A stretch of DNA of 38,874 bases from a virus (Duplodnaviria; Heunggongvirae; Uroviricota; Caudoviricetes): the IMG/VR virus record IMGVR_UViG_643692022_000007; one strand, 5' to 3'. Below, piece after piece: positions 11,200 through 33,770 of this stretch; positions within the stretch are counted from its first letter, which is position 1, and every line of letters starts with the position of its first letter. Made by a program: the position numbers and the translations under genes. A model generated the notes under the pieces. It had not been told where the DNA came from, did no database searches, and saw only the letters and a list, made by a program, of their open reading frames with translations.

Positions 11200-11677
11200 T
11201 TATTCGCTCCCGTCATCGCAATGTTCCTTCCGGTGGAAGTAATTCCAACCGTTCCACTTCGCCAACTGGTTACCACTACCAACAGGCATACGGTTTGGAT
11301 AACCGGACTTACATTTAGCGGCTTTTGCTCTGTCCATTGCAGACAGTTTGACGAGTCTCTCTTTCCCGTATCTGGCAGTGGTTATAAGTTTTGCAGACGC
11401 TTCCAGCGCATAATCCGGAGCAATGCGGCAGGCAAGGTTGAAAATGACGGCATTGATAGCGTTATTTGATAAACCGTGTTCATCGCCAGGATCTGGAGCG
11501 ACATCTGCATCAGCGAAAATGTAGCCAACGTTGATACCTGGTGACGCATCACCGCCAAGCCACTCAGCCATCATCATTTCAAGGTCGTTGACGCCATCTT
11601 CCATGGACTGCGGTTCGACATCGGTTAACGTGGCATTTGATGCCACACCGAGCTTACGTAATGCCGCAAGAACTAAA

Positions 11678-11700
<23 letters not shown>
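11200..11700 (-). CDS. gp4: Tail adaptor protein, P22 gp4-like (start taken at an internal ATG downstream of the repeat)
   Basis: From [33 protein letters not shown]... the product is 166 aa, matching remembered P22 gp4 in sequence and length. The longer track ORF (to 11811) adds an (SQ)n leader that is probably another frame of the repeat, not part of gp4. Confidence 0.8.
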
Positions 11701-11950
<250 letters not shown>

Positions 11951-11962
11951 GCTTGTCTCCAG

Positions 11963-11988
11963 ATAAAAAAGGGAGCCGAAGCTCCCTC
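11963..11988 (-). terminator. Rho-independent terminator or attenuator just downstream of the coat gene
   Basis: Minus-strand hairpin GGGAGC-TTCG-GCTCCC followed by TTTTTT, between the coat stop (11995) and the next start (11950). Confidence 0.7.
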
Positions 11989-11994
11989 TGGTTA

Positions 11995-13290
11995 TCACGC
12001 GGTCTGGTTAGGCAGACCAACACCAATTGCCTCTGGTCGTACAGCACATGCTGAATACCACACAGCAATACGGCACTTACCAGACAGAGTGTTGATATCA
12101 CCCTGCGTTGCGAAGATGCCGTTAACACCAATACCAGGAATGCTGAAGGAAGAAGTTTTCATGCCAGCAAACAGTTCATGAGTTACCGGGATCGGCTGAG
12201 ACAGCAGACGGATTGAGTCATCAGCCCAGAACACGTTAGCGGTGGTTGTTGCCACGTTCAGAACATTTACCGGAGTGGTATCAGCAAGAGAGGTGTTTAC
12301 GTTAGCGTAAGCCTTCTCTTCTTTTGTCAGTGACGCGTCATCCAGTGCAATCGGTTTCGGCGTGATTTCGAGGTGAGTACCATCGATCACACGGGTGATT
12401 GAGAAAGTAGCATCATCAGTCAGCACGTTCTTCGCCATCTGAGACAGGAATTTCACACCAGTGAAGCTGATTTTGTCGCCGCGCTTAAATCCGGTGGTGG
12501 AGGATACGGTCACCGTTGCAACACGGTTGTCGACGTTCTCTTTGTTACCATCGGTATCAAGGGTGTATGCCTGCGGCTTAAACTTCTGCGCACCAGAAAC
12601 AGTTACACCAGTAGCGGTTGACTTGGTAACTGCCGGAAGTTTCGGTGAGCGAAGAATTTCATCAAAGCCAGCAATCTGACGCTGAATAGTACCGTTGCGA
12701 TACGCTTCTTCAGGAACGCGACCGAAGATGTCACCATCTACCAGGTTGCGGCCTGCTTTGCGGTAATCGTCAGGGTTCAGGAAGTAACTGATGCCCATAT
12801 CGCGGTTTAGCTCACGGGAGAACATCAGGCGCTCTGCATCAGACACAAAATCCCAGCCAGACAGGCCAGTAGATGGACCAATTGCGCGGGTATCGTGAAC
12901 AACAAGTGAGCCCATTTCGGTTGCCTGTTTGGCAATTGCTGACTCAATGTTATTCGCCAGTTTTTTGGCGGATGCCTGGATGCGGCGACGGTAAGAACGC
13001 TCATCACACAGGTCATCTGCACGAAGCTCGAAGAAATCGTTATCCGGATCGCCCATGTTGCATTTTACGGAGAGTTCCAGAATCCCGGTTGCGTTGCCAG
13101 TTAAATCCCAGCCAGTCTGAGTTGGCGCTTCCTGCTCAACAGGCATCCACACGGTGTTGCTTGAACGTTGCATGGATTCTGCCGGAGGGGTGTATTTTGT
13201 CACTTTGGACGCCATTGGCGTCAGGTTCTGGACGGTTTCGATGATTTCATCCAGAGCATACGTGACCAGTTGACCTTCATTTAATGCCAT
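11995..13290 (-). CDS. gp5: Major capsid (coat) protein, P22 gp5 family
   Basis: 431 aa; close match along the whole length to remembered P22 coat protein (MALNEGQ...[12 protein letters not shown]...RDMGISYF...GLPNQTA). Confidence 0.95.
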
Positions 13291-27754: not shown

Positions 27755-28698
27755 GCAATCCCCCTGTCTGCAAACTTCCCTTCACGAACTCCCGTTAACG
27801 AATCTTCTCTCAGCAGGTAATCAAAATCGGCCGTCCAGCCAGTGTCGTTGTCTCCGAAGTAAAACGGCTTGGCCTGATGTACAAACGCCCTGACATACGC
27901 TCTGAAACCGTCCACGTTTGGCGTTTTCAGTTGCGGGATGATTTTCTTCAGGCGGCGTTTGCGTTTCTCGTTGACCGCAACAGCGTGTGGCAGTCTGTCA
28001 CCGACTTCGGTGTTGTAGGCGTTCAGGAAGGATTCGTAGTCGATTCGTTCTGCCTTGCGACGTTCAGGTTTAACCTTCCCATCACCTCCCCCATTGGGGG
28101 GTAGGGGGGTATTATTTATATTCTTGTTAATACCTTCTTGTTCATGATGTGCGGTTGTTTGTGCGGCTTCATGTGCGCTTTCATGTGCGGCATGTACTCT
28201 GAAAGCCGCGCCATTGCTGGCTTCGTCATGTGCGTCATCATGTGCGGTTGTTTGTGCGGCTTCATGTGCGGGTGAATTGTTCATTTTTTGAGCGTATTCA
28301 TGGTAATTTGTGACGGTGATCACACGACCTTTTTGCTTCTCTCCATCAATGGAGATCATCCCCTCTTTCACAAAAACCTGAAGCATCCGCTCAACCTGAT
28401 CACGGCTTGCCGGCTTGCCATGCCTGTCGCATAACTGAAGACCTAAATCAGCTGCTGTCACAACCAGTTGACCGGGTTGCAGATGCCATTCATGACCTTT
28501 GAAATTCGCTTTGTATGGCTTTCTGGCGGCATTCAGGAGAAGGTTTTCCCACAGGGTGCGAAGATAAACATCTTTCGCCCATGACTGTTTCAGAATGCTC
28601 CGGTACAACGGAATGTAACCAGTTTTCTGGTTCTCCATCCTGTTGCTCCTGCGCTCGTGTGCGGCGCTGAAATCGTAGATTTTTGCTGTATTGCTCAT
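27751..28698 (-). CDS. Replication initiation protein (lambda O / P22 gene 18 analogue) containing the origin iterons
   Basis: 315 aa; N-terminus [10 protein letters not shown] resembles lambda O (MTNTAKILNF); internal repeated peptide [10 protein letters not shown] arises from DNA iterons within the gene. Confidence 0.8.
28140..28280. repeat. ori: Candidate replication origin: array of direct repeats (iterons) with adjacent G-run/AT-rich segment
   Basis: Roughly 36-bp unit catgatgtgcggttgtttgtgcggcttcatgtgcg present twice (about 28141 and 28239); six or more copies of tcatgtgcg-like core; followed at about 28083-28140 by gggggg runs and AT-rich sequence. Confidence 0.65.
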
Positions 28699-30896: not shown

Positions 30897-31356
30897 TTTC
30901 TTCCGTCCAATGGAGTATGATAATAACTATGAGCAATTTGGTGTTATAGAAGCACACAGGAATGGTCGTTCTACTCCGTCATATCAGCCAGGCACCATTG
31001 GTAAGGATATCCCGGTTATTATTGCGCATAAGTTAAGCGATCAACCAGCAGGGGGTGAGCCACAGATGAGCGTAAAATCACTGTCACGTTGGGAGTTTTG
31101 GCTAGGGATTTTCACTGCCATTATTGGGATATTTTCCATTGTTGTAGGAGCAACGTGGACAATTTCTAATAATATCAATGATAAGATTAATGCATCAAGA
31201 CAAGAGCTAACCGGGAACATCCAATCCAGTCGAGCAGAAATCACGGCAAGAATTGACAGGCTCGAAGATAAGATGGAGTCTAATTTCAAAGAAACATCAT
31301 CGAATCTGTTCAAAATACAGGCAATTCTAGAAGCAAAATCCGACAAAGAAAAATAA
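30871..31356 (+). CDS. Hypothetical single-pass membrane protein with C-terminal coiled coil (immunity-region moron, gene B)
   Basis: 161 aa; MKM N-terminus; one TM helix (WEFWLGIFTAIIGIFSIVVGATW); heptad-like C-terminus; overlaps gene A by 26 nt; followed by a terminator. Confidence 0.6.
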   Translation: MKMTNQKTDFFRPMEYDNNYEQFGVIEAHRNGRSTPSYQPGTIGKDIPVIIAHKLSDQPAGGEPQMSVKSLSRWEFWLGIFTAIIGIFSIVVGATWTISNNINDKINASRQELTGNIQSSRAEITARIDRLEDKMESNFKETSSNLFKIQAILEAKSDKEK

Positions 31357-31363
31357 GAAAGTC

Positions 31364-31388
31364 CGGCCTCAGCGCCGGGTTTTCTTTG
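31364..31388 (+). terminator. Rho-independent terminator after the moron pair
   Basis: Hairpin CCGGC-ctcagc-GCCGG followed by GTTTTCTTTG, right after the gene B stop. Confidence 0.6.
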
Positions 31389-31539
31389 CCTTACGATCCC
31401 CACACCTAATAACACCTTAACCAATTGTATTTATTGAAAAATTGATAGATACAACTTGCTAAACCACGCAATTCTGATCCCTGCAGCATAACCTTCATCC
31501 GCAACATTTACAAAAATAAATTTCCTTATATATCAAAAT

Positions 31540-31660
31540 CATATTTCGTATAGTTAATAAATCACAAACAATTCGTACCAATAGTTCTTGATAATATCGA
31601 ACTATTGGTTCATTATTATCGCCATCAGCAGGACGCTGGTAGCCAAACGGAACAGATTGG
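31540..31660 (+). promoter_or_regulatory. Candidate OL / pL region upstream of nutL and N
   Basis: AT-rich gap containing an 11-bp perfect inverted repeat ACCAATAGTTC(n11)GAACTATTGGT and CGTAC motifs shared with OR; GATAAT and TATAGT -10-like hexamers. Exact promoter not resolved. Confidence 0.4.
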
Positions 31661-31663
31661 CAG

Positions 31664-31697
31664 GCTCTTTAACTTCGATGGGGCGCTGACAAAGCGC
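31664..31697 (+). promoter_or_regulatory. nutL: nutL (boxA plus boxB)
   Basis: boxA-like GCTCTTTAAC followed 10 nt later by boxB hairpin GCGCTGACAAAGCGC (P22-type), about 120 nt upstream of N. Confidence 0.75.
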
Positions 31698-31816
31698 AAA
31701 CAGATACCAAACGAGATGGGTTTGGCGGTGATGTGAATTGCAGCTGCAACGACAGCAACCAGAAGATCAGCATCTGGCGCATCACCACCAAAGCCATTTC
31801 ACATGAGGAAAATATC

Positions 31817-32158
31817 ATGACGGTAATCGTGTACGGGAAATCAACATTCGCAGGAAATGCCAAAACTCGCCGTCATGAGCGGCGCAGAAAGCTGGCTATC
31901 GAGCGTGATGCCATCTGCAACATCATCGATTCGATCTTCAGTACAGACAGTGAGGAACCTGTTCAGGAAGCCCCGAGAAAGCGTTTAAGCCTTTCTGAAA
32001 AAGCAATATCACTCGGAAGCCTTCGCTGCAAGAAGTCAGAAGAAGTCGAGCGTAAACAGAATCGTATTTACTACCGCAAGCCACGCAGTGAAATGGGTGT
32101 GACTTGTTCAGGTCGCCAGAAGCAACGCGGAAAATCAATTCCAGCTTATTACGATTGA
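31817..32158 (+). CDS. N: Antitermination protein N
   Basis: From MTVIVYGKSTFAGNAKTRRHERRRKLAIERD... (arginine-rich motif) to a C-terminus ...VTCSGRQKQRGKSIPAYYD resembling lambda N (ITCSGRQKIKGKSIPLI); GAGGAA before the ATG. Confidence 0.85.
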   Translation: MTVIVYGKSTFAGNAKTRRHERRRKLAIERDAICNIIDSIFSTDSEEPVQEAPRKRLSLSEKAISLGSLRCKKSEEVERKQNRIYYRKPRSEMGVTCSGRQKQRGKSIPAYYD

Positions 32159-32166
32159 GGTGAGAT

Positions 32167-32304
32167 ATGCTCAAGAAAGTCAAACGCCGACTTTACAAAG
32201 AAGGTAGATATTCATGCCAGTTGCCAAAATGCGACACAACAAAATGGAGTGTCGATGATTGGTGTAACTGGATAGATAGATACGGAACTTGGTGGGATAA
32301 ATAA
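32167..32304 (+). CDS. Hypothetical small Cys/Trp-rich protein (45 aa)
   Basis: Hand-translated MLKKVKRRLYKEGRYSCQLPKCDTTKWSVDDWCNWIDRYGTWWDK; strong SD GAGGTGAGAT immediately before the ATG, right after the N stop. Confidence 0.35.
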   Translation: MLKKVKRRLYKEGRYSCQLPKCDTTKWSVDDWCNWIDRYGTWWDK

Positions 32305-32428
32305 CAGGTAACTTAAGCGTATTTACTTTCGCAGCAAACAACTTATTTGAGGTGAGATATGGAAGAAGAATTTGAAGAGTTCGAAGAGCATCCTCAGGAT
32401 GTGATGGAACAATACCAGGACTATCCGT

Positions 32429-32629
32429 ATGACTACGACTATTGATAAAAATCAATGGTGTGGACAATTCAAGCGATGCAATGGATGCAAGCTGCAATCG
32501 GAATGCATGGTTAAGCCTGAAGAAATGTTTCCTGTAATGGAAGATGGGAAATATGTCGATAAATGGGCAATACGAACGACGGCAATGATTGCCAGAGAAC
32601 TTGGTAAACAGAATAACAAGGCTGCCTGA
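32429..32629 (+). CDS. Hypothetical small Cys-containing protein (start uncertain)
   Basis: 66-aa track ORF MTTTIDKNQWCGQFKRCNGCKLQSEC...; overlaps an upstream 28-aa acidic ORF that has the better SD. Confidence 0.3.
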   Translation: MTTTIDKNQWCGQFKRCNGCKLQSECMVKPEEMFPVMEDGKYVDKWAIRTTAMIARELGKQNNKAA

Positions 32630-32669
32630 TGGTGGCCTTTATTTTTGGCATAAACAACAGAATAAATAC

Positions 32670-32709
32670 TGCTCCGTGTATTCATTCCAACGAGTGAATA
32701 CACGGAGCA
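32670..32709. repeat. 15-bp perfect inverted repeat (strong hairpin)
   Basis: TGCTCCGTGTATTCA-(10 nt)-TGAATACACGGAGCA, between the small-ORF cluster and the coiled-coil gene. Confidence 0.85.
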
Positions 32710-32798
32710 ATGTCGCTCGTAACTAAACAGGAGCCGACTTGTTCTGATTATTGGAAATCTTCTTTGCCCTCCAGTGTGGGGGCTTTTTTGATGGAGGA

Positions 32799-33770
32799 TA
32801 TATGAGTGAAGTAACAGATTTAGTTGTTATTGAAAAAGCAAATGCAATGATTGTATTTCAGTCTGCTGACCAGATTGAAGAAATTCTCCAAAAGGTTGAA
32901 CGTGAAGTTATGTCCTTTGTGCCTGATATCACAACGGCAAAGGGCAGAAAGGAGATCGCTTCTCTGGCGTATAAAGTTGCGCAGACGAAAACATATCTCG
33001 ATGGTCTTGGCAAAGACCTTGTTGCTGAACTGAAGGAAATTCCAAAGCTAATTGATGCCAACCGCAAGACAGTGCGCGATCGCCTTGATGAACTGAAAGC
33101 CAAGGCACGCCAGCCTCTTACTGATTATGAGGAAGAACAGGCGCGAATTAAAGCCGAAGAAGAAGCTAAGGCAGCAGCTGAAGCTCTCGCAAAGCAAATT
33201 GAGTCTGACCATGAAATAGCGATTTTGATGGATCGCGAATTTGACCGCCAAAGAGAAGAGGCAAGACTCAAAGCGGAGCAGGAAAAGCGAGAGCATGAAG
33301 AACGCTTAAAAAGAGAAGCTGAAGAGAAAGCCAGAGCAGAAGCCGAAGCAAAGGCAAAAGCCGAAATTGAAGCAGCAGCAAGACGAGAAGCAGAGGCTAA
33401 GGCCGCAGCGGAACGTGCAGAGCGTGAACGCATTGAAGCCGAGCAACGAGCACAGCGCGAAGCAAAAGAGGCAGCAGAACGAGCTGAAAGAGAAAAGCAT
33501 GCGGCAATTGAAGCAGAACGCCGAAAAGCACAGGAGGAGGCTGAACGAATCCGGCTCGAGGCTGAAGCAAAAGAGCAAGCCAGAATAGCAGAAGAAAAAA
33601 GAATCAAGGACGAAGAAGAGCGTAGAGCAAAGGATAAAGCTCACCGGAAAGAAGTAAATAACAAAATACTTGCTGACCTTATCAAGGTTGGCGCATCAGA
33701 AGATGTTGCTAAAAATATCATAACAGCCATCGTAAAAGGCGAAGTATTCGCAACAAAAATAACCTACTAA
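32799..33770 (+). CDS. Hypothetical highly charged coiled-coil protein with Ala/Glu/Lys/Arg repeats
   Basis: From MSEVTDLVVIEKANAMIVFQ..., about 323 aa; central ~200 aa low-complexity (AEAEAKAKAEIEAAARREAEAKAAAERAERERIEAE...); globular ends. Confidence 0.6.
   Translation, partial: YMSEVTDLVVIEKANAMIVFQSADQIEEILQKVEREVMSFVPDITTAKGRKEIASLAYKVAQTKTYLDGLGKDLVAELKEIPKLIDANRKTVRDRLDELKAKARQPLTDYEEEQARIKAEEEAKAAAEALAKQIESDHEIAILMDREFDRQREEARLKAEQEKREHEERLKREAEEKARAEAEAKAKAEIEAAARREAEAKAAAERAERERIEAEQRAQREAKEAAERAEREKHAAIEAERRKAQEEAERIRLEAEAKEQARIAEEKRIKDEEERRAKDKAHRKEVNNKILADLIKVGASEDVAKNIITAIVKGEVFATKITY

Follow-up and report, generated by a model that had tools for sequence, protein, structure and literature searches.

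The DNA downstream of the antitermination gene N in the viral genome analysed here (38,874 nt, hereafter the window) raises the question of why one 15-nt string, TTGAGGTGAGATATG, should occur twice at a distance of 192 nt, each time closing with the ATG of one small ORF. The original prediction had placed the string at about 32154 and 32346 and had noted a strong Shine-Dalgarno (SD) sequence directly before each ATG. Exact matches are found at 32155-32169 and 32347-32361, both on the plus strand and each shifted by one base from the predicted coordinate. They are the only two exact copies in the window, and a search of its 38,874 nt for further copies with two or fewer mismatches (0.12 expected in shuffles) returned none. 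A repeat of this length is not in itself unusual, as about 0.7 exact direct pairs of 15-mers are expected anywhere in a window of such size. What sets the pair apart from chance is only its spacing of 192 nt, together with the fact that both copies close on the start codon of an adjacent ORF; by our own arithmetic, the chance of two copies at this distance is 38874 x 200 / 4^15, or about 0.007. The features of the region that bear on the question are listed below in order of position.

31588..31616, plus strand: pL-like sigma-70 promoter, TTGATA-17-CATTAT, from a consensus scan.
31683..31697, plus strand: nutL boxB-like hairpin GCGCTGACAAAGCGC, read from the sequence.
31817..32158, plus strand: antitermination gene N, 113 aa (Pfam N_peptide, 1.4e-25; phrog_271, 9.5e-45).
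32155..32169, plus strand: junction copy 1, with the N stop TGA at 32156-32158, the SD sequence GAGGTGA at 32157-32163 and an ATG at 32167-32169.
32167..32304, plus strand: 45-aa gene, Sf6 gene 36, Pfam DUF5484 / phrog_1871 (from PF17583, PHROG and the Sf6 annotation).
32310..32346, plus strand: degenerate, internally deleted relic of the 3′ end of a phage-21-type N, from alignment to N sequences.
32347..32361, plus strand: junction copy 2, with a vestigial N stop, the SD sequence GAGGTGA and the ATG of orf28.
32359..32445, plus strand: orf28, MEEEFEEFEEHPQDVMEQYQDYPYDYDY, which is lambda orf28 / lambdap47, phrog_16060 (identical peptide in lambda).
32429..32629, plus strand: ral, restriction alleviation, 66 aa (PF11058, 1.6e-48).
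32430..32466, plus strand: predicted hairpin over the ral initiation region, from folds, with the orf28 stop (32443-32445) in its 5′ arm.
32618..32800, plus strand: right-hand conserved block, from a terminator scan and alignment to the Sf6 bsq4/tL2A annotation.
32618-32649, plus strand: terminator overlapping the ral stop, from the terminator scan.
32766-32790, plus strand: tL2A-like terminator, from the terminator scan and alignment to Sf6 tL2A.

The promoter lies upstream of nutL and N, as it does in the annotated layouts of Sf6 and phage 21, and the hairpin at 31683..31697 is one that we take to be a P22-type boxB. Promoter and terminator scans found neither kind of signal inside 32100-32460, and the stretch from N to ral would be read as one transcript. 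Two antisense ORFs in the region (32180-32497 and 31938-32183) were considered as genes; neither has a credible PHROG family, and both were treated as spurious.

The N protein ends in ...GRQKQRGKSIPAYYD*, an end termed N(i)-type here, and its TGA stop codon forms bases 2-4 of copy 1. The stop is embedded in the downstream SD sequence and precedes the ATG at 32167 by 8 nt, which is the arrangement of stop and SD found in translationally coupled gene pairs. Pairing of the junction SD with the anti-SD sequence amounts to -11.5 kcal/mol, a value in the top 0.8% of the 1566 ATGs of the window and better than that of all 46 long-ORF starts, in agreement with the strength predicted for it. Each junction copy would thus be a very strong ribosome-binding site, and ribosomes that end N translation at copy 1 would halt so close to the next ATG that translation of the 45-aa gene may be coupled to that of N.

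Copy 2 is also associated with N sequence. The 24 nt at 32310-32333 are 79% identical to an internal segment of N (32055-32078), and positions 32334-32361 align to the final codons of N in phage 21, where the protein ends in ...GSKPLI*. Together these segments make up a relic of about 50 nt, including copy 2, that lies downstream of the 45-aa gene; the same relic is found upstream of orf28 in lambda and P22. In phages 21, HK544, and CUS-3, N itself ends in ...GSKPLI* and its TGA lies inside a single junction right before orf28, representing the intact form of this end, N(ii). Since copy 1 holds the N stop and copy 2 lies within an N relic, both copies are junctions of an N end, an SD sequence, and an ATG. 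With a live N end to the left of the 45-aa gene and a relic N end to its right, the duplication consists of two homologous N 3′ ends, and a de novo duplication of the 15-mer is accordingly disfavoured. The junction occurs twice because N is separated from the orf28-ral pair by a one-gene cassette, the 45-aa gene. The 15-mer is thus likely to be a conserved gene-boundary joint in the pL operon of lambdoid phages, composed of the N stop, an extended SD sequence, and the next ATG, that is reiterated by the 45-aa cassette.

The exact identity of the two copies is a separate matter. Copy 1 reads TTGAGGTGAGCCATG in all 62 of the IMG/VR relatives that have the 45-aa gene after the same N end, and in the closest E. 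coli prophage as well. Copy 2 is polymorphic among relatives, reading GAGATATG or GATATATG, and the core conserved in both copies is TTGAGGTGA(G/T)..ATG. The two copies match at 12-13 of 15 positions in relatives, and the 15/15 state is private to this window; among the 128 E. coli genomes with the full arrangement (5426 genomes searched), none reaches an identity of at least 99%. The private state, in which the CC of copy 1 has become AT, most likely arose from a short conversion by copy 2 or from two point changes.

The ORFs that follow the two copies are both already-annotated phage genes rather than new ones. The first had been described as encoding a 45-aa Cys/Trp-rich peptide, and the product of 32167-32304 does contain 3 Cys and 5 Trp. 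Its Cys residues are not conserved in the DUF5484 family, of which the conserved residues G13, Y15, P20, T24, W27, W32, I36, D37, G40, and W42 are present here. The protein scores 46.7 bits against PF17583 (cutoff 27; E = 2.6e-12), above the gathering threshold, and 1.4e-22 against phrog_1871. A word-indexed protein search gave near-identical proteins only, and the family became visible by exhaustive search, with 55 representative clusters. An AlphaFold2 model of the protein (pLDDT 93.8) has structural matches only to uncharacterised T4-like phage proteins.

The second ORF fits its earlier description as extremely acidic, with 12 acidic and 0 basic residues among its 28, and as overlapping the 66-aa ORF, here by 17 nt. 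It matches phrog_16060 (7.1e-19) over 28/28 residues; a search of Pfam gave no match at E <= 1, and so does not place the peptide in the Ocr or ArdA sequence families. The pattern of substitution indicates that the peptide is under coding constraint, as 21 of the 29 variant sites outside the ral overlap fall at third codon positions (p = 2e-5) and the frame is intact in about 185 of 188 copies. The 66-aa ORF is Ral, with 162.5 bits against PF11058 (cutoff 25) across residues 1-66/66, and orf28 lies upstream of ral in 99/99 copies. In the closest prophage, the PGAP annotation includes neither the 45-aa gene nor orf28. The literature searched gives no function for orf28 or DUF5484; the product of lambda orf28 is entered as hypothetical and non-essential (PMC10695390).

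The position of orf28 suggests one role that it may have. The SD energy of ral is -4.0 kcal/mol, as against -11.5 kcal/mol for orf28, and the orf28 stop lies 14 nt after the ral ATG, within the predicted hairpin over the ral start. This hairpin is predicted at -13 kcal/mol here and at -15 to -19 kcal/mol in phages of the P22 group, in which the base-pairing takes in the AUG. The sequence is doubly coding, and a covariation test gave 1 compensatory pair, with values as high as those observed in 28-77 of 500 shuffles, which is not significant. Copy 2 would load ribosomes onto orf28, and translation of orf28 would enter and open the hairpin over the weak-SD start of ral, so that Ral synthesis is probably driven by orf28 translation. 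As judged from this layout, orf28 probably acts as a ribosome loader for ral, and the locus points to the long-neglected orf28 of lambda as a control on Ral synthesis. A distant Ral homologue in phage GZMU_E2010 (64% identity) has its own SD sequence and is found without orf28, implying that Ral does not intrinsically need orf28 and ruling out an obligatory partnership between the two.

How general the junction is can be seen among relatives. In about 250 distinct related contexts, drawn from IMG/VR and GenBank sets of mostly close relatives so that the number of contexts does not equal the number of independent events, the junction joins four upstream types to 11 unrelated first genes. The upstream types are the N(i) end, the intact N(ii) end, the relic after the 45-aa gene, and other sequences. 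The N(i) end with its junction precedes six different genes, and the copy-2-type junction precedes nine among IMG/VR contigs. The same downstream genes are found both with and without the 45-aa cassette. Salmonella phage ST160 provides an empty site, with the N end of the window, one junction, and orf28, and no 45-aa gene between them; BLAST matches to phages of this type start exactly at 32347. Sf6 has three copies of the junction, in the order N, junction, gene 36, junction, orf28, ral, junction, gene 34. Five of the 11 first genes begin with ATGGAA (p of about 1e-4 if GAA is taken to occupy the second codon with a probability of 5%).

The slot also has a conserved right border. Part of the right-hand block is homologous to 'bsq4' of Sf6, and in HF4s, mEpX1, and Bas106 this bsq4/terminator block is likewise found behind unrelated cassette genes. 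Three cassette genes end in ...KAA* within the shared terminator stem. The suggestion that the duplicated string could be a module-junction linker is upheld by the four upstream contexts and 11 downstream genes, by the empty site in ST160, and by the three copies in Sf6, and the arrangement is ordinary phage mosaicism and not a new element.

A published model of phage mosaicism holds that homologous recombination takes place at short conserved boundary sequences (PMC3233612), and lambda Red promotes recombination between diverged sequences (PMC2327257). The combinatorial pattern suggests that the joint may serve as a short shared homology which, together with the bsq4/terminator block, would permit exchange of the first genes of the pL operon. 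Unequal crossing-over at the joint would stack first genes one behind the other, and stacked genes could later be deleted.

Several other readings of the repeat have to be weighed against a gene-boundary joint. Two unrelated small genes could each have evolved a near-consensus SD sequence at optimal spacing, given that function dictates 10 of the 15 bases (those of GAGGTGA and ATG), that about 0.7 exact 15-mer pairs are expected by chance in the window, and that exact identity is absent from relatives. Such convergence is very unlikely, however, as the similarity extends beyond the SD sequence to the CTTATT before both copies and to the N-like 24 nt upstream of copy 2, copy 2 is literally the N end in phages 21, HK544, and CUS-3, and GAGGTGA, which occurs only five times in the window, belongs to a junction common to 11 unrelated genes. 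The 192-nt unit between direct repeats, the exact empty site in ST160, and the independence of cassette presence from the downstream gene could alternatively describe a small mobile insertion, with the 15-mers as its target-site duplication. This reading was dropped and is given hardly any credence: a search for inverted repeats came up empty at the ends of the cassette, and there is no transposase or integrase in or beside the unit. Moreover, the copies of nearly all relatives differ at 2-3 of 15 positions and do so in the same way, the CC spacer being linked to the 45-aa gene, and on its right the unit is flanked by a longer, degenerate remnant of N instead of a clean duplication. Every occurrence so far lies behind an N 3′ end or an N relic, and in mEpX1 the 45-aa gene travels with about 100 nt of the N 3′ end, which points to recombination between phage genomes. 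A short sequence that is repeated and conserved within one transcript might also regulate the pL transcript, either as a binding site or as an RNA element (an sRNA target, part of a riboswitch, or a pause site, for instance). The likelihood of this is minimal, and the reading was dropped because local RNA folds at the two copies are no more stable than shuffles (z = 0.25 and 0.05); a scan of 31300-33000 on both strands with the covariance models of Rfam 15 gave no match at E <= 1, and both downstream ORFs are independently supported as genes, whereas the antisense ORFs have no family.

The remaining alternatives concern how the boundaries came to be shared, and each is unlikely though less remote. 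Random illegitimate recombination, with selection then retaining joints that leave genes and ribosome-binding sites intact, is the standard alternative model of phage mosaicism (PMC3233612), and under it the junction would have been kept as a good ribosome-binding site overlapping the N end, with no role in targeting. The internal deletion in the relic and an internal deletion in ral between short repeats are illegitimate or microhomology events at this very locus, and if such joints later spread through homology in the flanks, N to the left and bsq4 to the right, a similar combinatorial pattern could result. We nonetheless consider it improbable that selection alone accounts for the locus, as the 11 unrelated genes have the same 15-30 nt including the spacer and not merely the SD sequence, five share the ATGGAA start, and three share the ...KAA* end in the terminator stem. 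Random joints would yield heterogeneous intergenic sequences, and the observed pattern is the one expected from short-homology crossovers. A stronger version of homology-targeted exchange is equally speculative. It supposes that the N-stop/SD junction and the bsq4/terminator block form a dedicated, recombinase-independent cassette site at the front of the lambdoid pL operon (an 'integron without integrase'), where relaxed recombination of the Red type on 15-30 nt swaps, stacks, and deletes early accessory genes, probably with anti-defence functions, and that the conserved acidic-aromatic peptide Orf28 is an anti-restriction partner or decoy beyond its part as the ral leader; we regard this as doubtful. 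Pfam and PHROG scans of nine alternative cassette genes returned 'unknown function' for all of them, which leaves an anti-defence hotspot in the slot conjectural.

Taking the 15-mer as a gene-boundary joint, the locus offers a sequence-level example for the debate over whether mosaicism reflects homology-targeted exchange at short boundaries or selection-filtered random joints. One joint made of an N end and a ribosome-binding site, found with 11 genes in four contexts and in up to three copies, makes the question testable by simple phage crosses. The first position after N, beside ral, is a hotspot of early-expressed accessory genes and a sensible place to search for anti-defence functions. 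With regard to annotation, two real small genes are routinely missed at this locus.

Parts of the arrangement have counterparts in known systems. Translational coupling through overlap of stop and start, or through unfolding by an upstream ORF, is found in the MS2 coat-replicase, trp, and gal operon pairs. The likeness to these coupled pairs lies in the N stop within the downstream SD sequence and in the end of orf28 within the hairpin that covers the ral start. A pure coupling leader, however, would not need constraint on its peptide, whereas the orf28 peptide has such constraint, and coupling at this locus is suggested by sequence features. The DNA-mimic anti-restriction proteins Ocr and ArdA resemble orf28 in that the peptide is very acidic and is encoded beside an anti-restriction gene, but they are folded, DNA-shaped dimers, for which a peptide of 28 aa with no family match is too short. 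The earlier suggestion that the acidic peptide could mimic DNA or act as an inhibitor stays conjectural. The closest parallel for the orf28-ral pair is lambda itself, which has exactly the peptide and the Ral of the window, with the same 17-nt overlap and a similar upstream SD sequence; in lambda, N is followed by sieB and then by the relic with orf28, and the junction reads TTTAAGGTGATATATG, whereas in the window orf28 follows the 45-aa gene. For the 45-aa gene the closest parallel is Sf6 gene 36, which encodes a 98% identical protein in the same place after N and belongs to DUF5484 (T4 55.4-like small proteins); the spacer of copy 1 is CC in Sf6 and AT in this window.

With regard to the junction as a whole, the nearest relatives are the lambdoid boundary sequences, annotated as bsq in the records of Sf6 and CUS-3, which are likewise short conserved sequences at gene boundaries with unrelated flanking genes. 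The linker idea is said to be that of Susskind and Botstein, and such boundary sequences were reportedly described as recombination foci by Clark et al. 2001 in work on HK620. It is proposed that homologous recombination concentrates at the bsq and thereby reshuffles modules; a role of this kind for the junction is suggested by the combinatorial pattern and the ATGGAA and KAA* ends. The right border of the slot is itself an annotated bsq4, but the junction is not among the annotated bsq, as in the Sf6 and CUS-3 records bsq5 precedes N and bsq4 follows the slot. It is also much shorter than a bsq (about 15-30 nt), doubles as N stop and ribosome-binding site, and can stand two to three times within a single genome. 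Integron gene-cassette arrays share with the slot a promoter-proximal position in which single promoterless genes with the same short header are stacked and exchanged. Integrons, however, use an integrase, attI, and attC, whereas exchange at the junction slot would proceed without these, through general or Red-type recombination, and the likeness is one of analogy only.

Two exact copies of the 15-nt string TTGAGGTGAGATATG are present in the window, both on the plus strand (32155-32169 and 32347-32361), and allowing up to two mismatches adds no third. Each copy finishes on the start codon (ATG) of a small ORF, bearing out the original observation of a 15-nt initiation cassette duplicated before two tiny ORFs. 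Repetition alone is unremarkable, as approximately 0.7 direct 15-mer pairs are expected by chance in 38.9 kb. Two 15-mers lying 192 nt apart and both falling on start codons are nonetheless a non-chance pattern, and the GAGGTGA heptamer within the string is found at only five places in the entire window. The TGA stop codon of the antiterminator gene N (32156-32158) makes up bases 2-4 of the first copy. The genes concerned are:

31817-32158: antiterminator N (Pfam N_peptide, 1.4e-25; phrog_271)
32167-32304: 45-aa ORF, gene 36 of phage Sf6 (Pfam DUF5484; score 46.7 bits, cutoff 27)
32359-32445: 28-aa, very acidic ORF, orf28 of lambda (peptide identical to that of lambda; phrog_16060)
32429-32629: 66-aa ORF, Ral, the restriction-alleviation protein of lambda (PF11058, 1.6e-48)

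The window is that of a P22/Sf6-like lambdoid phage. The 45-aa gene and orf28, whose 3′-end overlaps the start of ral by 17 nt, have both been annotated before without an assigned function; orf28 is annotated in lambda (J02459, 34271-34357) and was classed as a non-essential hypothetical protein in a CRISPRi survey of that phage (PMC10695390). An exhaustive search placed the 45-aa protein in a family of 55 representative clusters with members of 40-60 aa, in which the conserved residues are G13, Y15, P20, T24, W27, W32, I36, D37, G40 and W42; cysteines are not among them. In the prophage of E. coli 2824 (locus L306, 601-1109) PGAP calls N and Ral and omits the 45-aa gene and orf28, and Ral in this strain is a 59-aa form with a premature stop. 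The N gene of the window is itself mosaic: the 5′ part, with a P22-type arginine-rich motif, matches Stx1 phages, phiKp_30 and lambda variants; from about 32000 onward the gene resembles N7 (a phage-21-type N), and its final ~90 nt (starting near 32070) correspond to Sf6.

Other repeats were observed in the window. A hexamer tandem repeat of TCTGGC (11748-11805, ~9-10 units) is read on the minus strand as (SQ)10, which opens a 203-aa ORF (11811..11200), and in another frame as (EP)9, close to the C-terminal end of a 106-aa ORF (11998..11678); these ORFs overlap each other across the repeat. An exact 31-nt direct repeat, ATGTGCGGTTGTTTGTGCGGCTTCATGTGCG, lies at 28147-28177 and 28240-28270, 93 nt apart, in a region rich in CATGTGCG motifs.

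The origin of the second copy is indicated by phages 21, HK544 and CUS-3, which are without the 45-aa gene; their N ends in ...GSKPLI*, with its TGA within a single junction, cttaTTTGAGGTGATATATG, that leads directly into orf28. In the window, 32310-32333 is 79% identical to the N-internal segment 32055-32078, and 32334-32361 can be aligned to the final codons of N in phage 21 together with the junction. These alignments show that a phage-21-type N end persists as a degenerate, internally deleted relic 3′ of the 45-aa gene. In lambda and P22, where sieB lies between N and orf28, a similar internally deleted N relic precedes orf28. Because the N stop lies in copy 1 and the relic abuts copy 2, both copies are homologous joints of N end, Shine-Dalgarno (SD) sequence and ATG, of which copy 1 is the live end of N and copy 2 is vestigial.

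Salmonella phage ST160 has the window-type N end (...QKQRGKSIPAYYD*), then one junction, then orf28, and is the exact ‘empty site’ of the 192-nt unit; BLAST matches to ST160-type phages start exactly where copy 2 does, at 32347. An IMG/VR scan with two N-end/junction patterns was pooled with 80 loci from the Ral search and GenBank loci, giving ~250 distinct contexts. Upstream of the junction there are four kinds of sequence (the window-type N end, the intact phage-21-type N end, the relic after the 45-aa gene, and other), and downstream 11 unrelated first genes, namely the 45-aa gene, orf28 and nine PHROG families annotated ‘unknown function’. The suggestion that the duplication is a module-junction linker is therefore both supported and sharpened. 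The same genes recur downstream with and without the 45-aa cassette ahead of them. Sf6 has three junctions, in the order N-J-gene 36-J-orf28-ral-J-gene 34 (upstream of CDS starts 1596, 1858 and 2117), and the third, TGCTTATTACAATCAAGGTGATATATG, includes a degenerate 3′-end relic of the window-type N; the counterpart of gene 34 in HF4s directly follows N. In mEpX1 a different N and a Nun-like gene precede the 45-aa gene, which has ~100 nt of N 3′-end travelling with it; in Bas106 the 45-aa ORF has been fused by a small deletion with the relic and terminates in ...SKPLI*, as phage 21 N does.

At the right border, one terminator-containing block, corresponding to Sf6 ‘bsq4; boundary sequence’ and tL2A, follows unrelated cassette genes. 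Ral and a MEFHES-class gene both end ...KAA*, their stop codons lying in the stem of the common terminator, AAGGCTGCCTGATGGTGGCCTT (32612-32649 in the window and equivalent positions in related loci), and an unrelated third gene, of the MEALVV family, ends on a close stem variant, AAGGCCGAATAGTCGGCCTT; the near-identical 3′-ends of unrelated cassette proteins arise because the stop codon sits in this stem. At the left border, the first codons are ATGGAA in 5 of the 11 genes (chance ~1e-4 at an assumed 5% frequency).

Shared sequence that runs some codons into the genes would be the trace expected of crossovers in short shared sequences. Such crossovers, and random joints followed by selection, are both standard models (PMC3233612), and lambda Red is reported to recombine diverged sequences efficiently (PMC2327257). 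The serious rival, which concerns the evolutionary mechanism only, is that the joints were illegitimate and the junction was kept merely as an N end and a good ribosome-binding site. We consider this unlikely, as random joints filtered by selection alone are harder to fit to shared sequence extending into genes. Convergence of two SD sequences is contradicted by the flanking N homology and the comparative data. A transposon-type target duplication was rejected, there being no inverted repeats and no recombinase, a right flank that is an N relic, and copies that differ consistently at 2-3 positions in relatives; no support was found for an RNA regulatory element.

The exact 15/15 identity of the two copies is private to the window phage. 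Among IMG/VR contigs in which the 45-aa gene follows a window-type N end, copy 1 is TTGAGGTGAGCCATG in 62 of 62. In the closest E. coli prophage, copy 1 likewise has CC and copy 2 reads GATATATG (12/15 identity). The full arrangement is present in 128 of 5426 complete E. coli genomes, none at 99% identity to the window. The AT spacer is elsewhere tied to genes after copy 2 or directly after N, and the simplest account of the change from CC to AT in the window is a short gene conversion templated by copy 2, or else a pair of point mutations. What is conserved is TTGAGGTGA(G/T)..ATG in an N-end context, rather than a perfect 15-mer.

A scan of 32100-32460 found no promoter-like or terminator-like sites, and the next terminators lie at 32618-32649 and 32766-32790; a single pL transcript therefore probably carries N, the 45-aa gene, orf28 and ral. 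The strong SD predicted at both ATGs was confirmed, with the junction pairing to the 16S 3′-end at -11.5 kcal/mol (top 0.8% of 1566 window ATGs, and better than all 46 long-ORF starts); the SD of ral itself reaches -4.0 kcal/mol. At copy 1, a ribosome terminating on N would stop 8 nt ahead of the next ATG, a geometry suited to translational coupling, and copy 2 would load ribosomes onto orf28. A predicted hairpin (32430-32466, -13 kcal/mol) covers the ral initiation region with the orf28 stop in its 5′ arm, and in the P22 group the predicted hairpin is stronger (-15 to -19 kcal/mol) and includes the AUG among its paired bases; its covariation, one compensatory pair within doubly coding sequence, is not significant. 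Translation of orf28 would open the hairpin and bring ribosomes beside the ral start. All 99 ral copies examined are preceded by orf28. A distant Ral with 64% identity is equipped with an SD of its own and lacks orf28, which makes the pairing a trait of the lambda/P22 lineage.

The orf28 frame is intact in ~185 of 188 copies from E. coli and Salmonella phages. Within the 70 nt that do not overlap ral, 21 variants fall at third codon positions, against 5 at first and 3 at second positions (p = 2e-5), and third-position replacements are chiefly Glu/Asp swaps, a pattern indicating that the peptide is under selection beyond the needs of a pure leader ORF. In about ten distinct contexts orf28 is intact while ral is internally deleted; a recurrent deletion of ~110 nt lies between short GG(A/G)CAAT repeats (IMG/VR loci L106, L112, L161, L181, L205, L214, L240, L248 and L259) and, read from the DNA, appears to leave an 18-aa stump. 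No Pfam family was found for the 28-aa peptide, which is far below the size of Ocr or ArdA family members; in its acidic-aromatic pattern the peptide is reminiscent of SSB-type acidic tails.

The reiteration of the joint and its eleven-gene repertoire appear to have no earlier mention in the literature searched, and none of the annotated bsq elements corresponds to the N-stop/ribosome-binding-site joint. The genes themselves have been described before, and lambdoid boundary sequences are an established class to which the phenomenon belongs.
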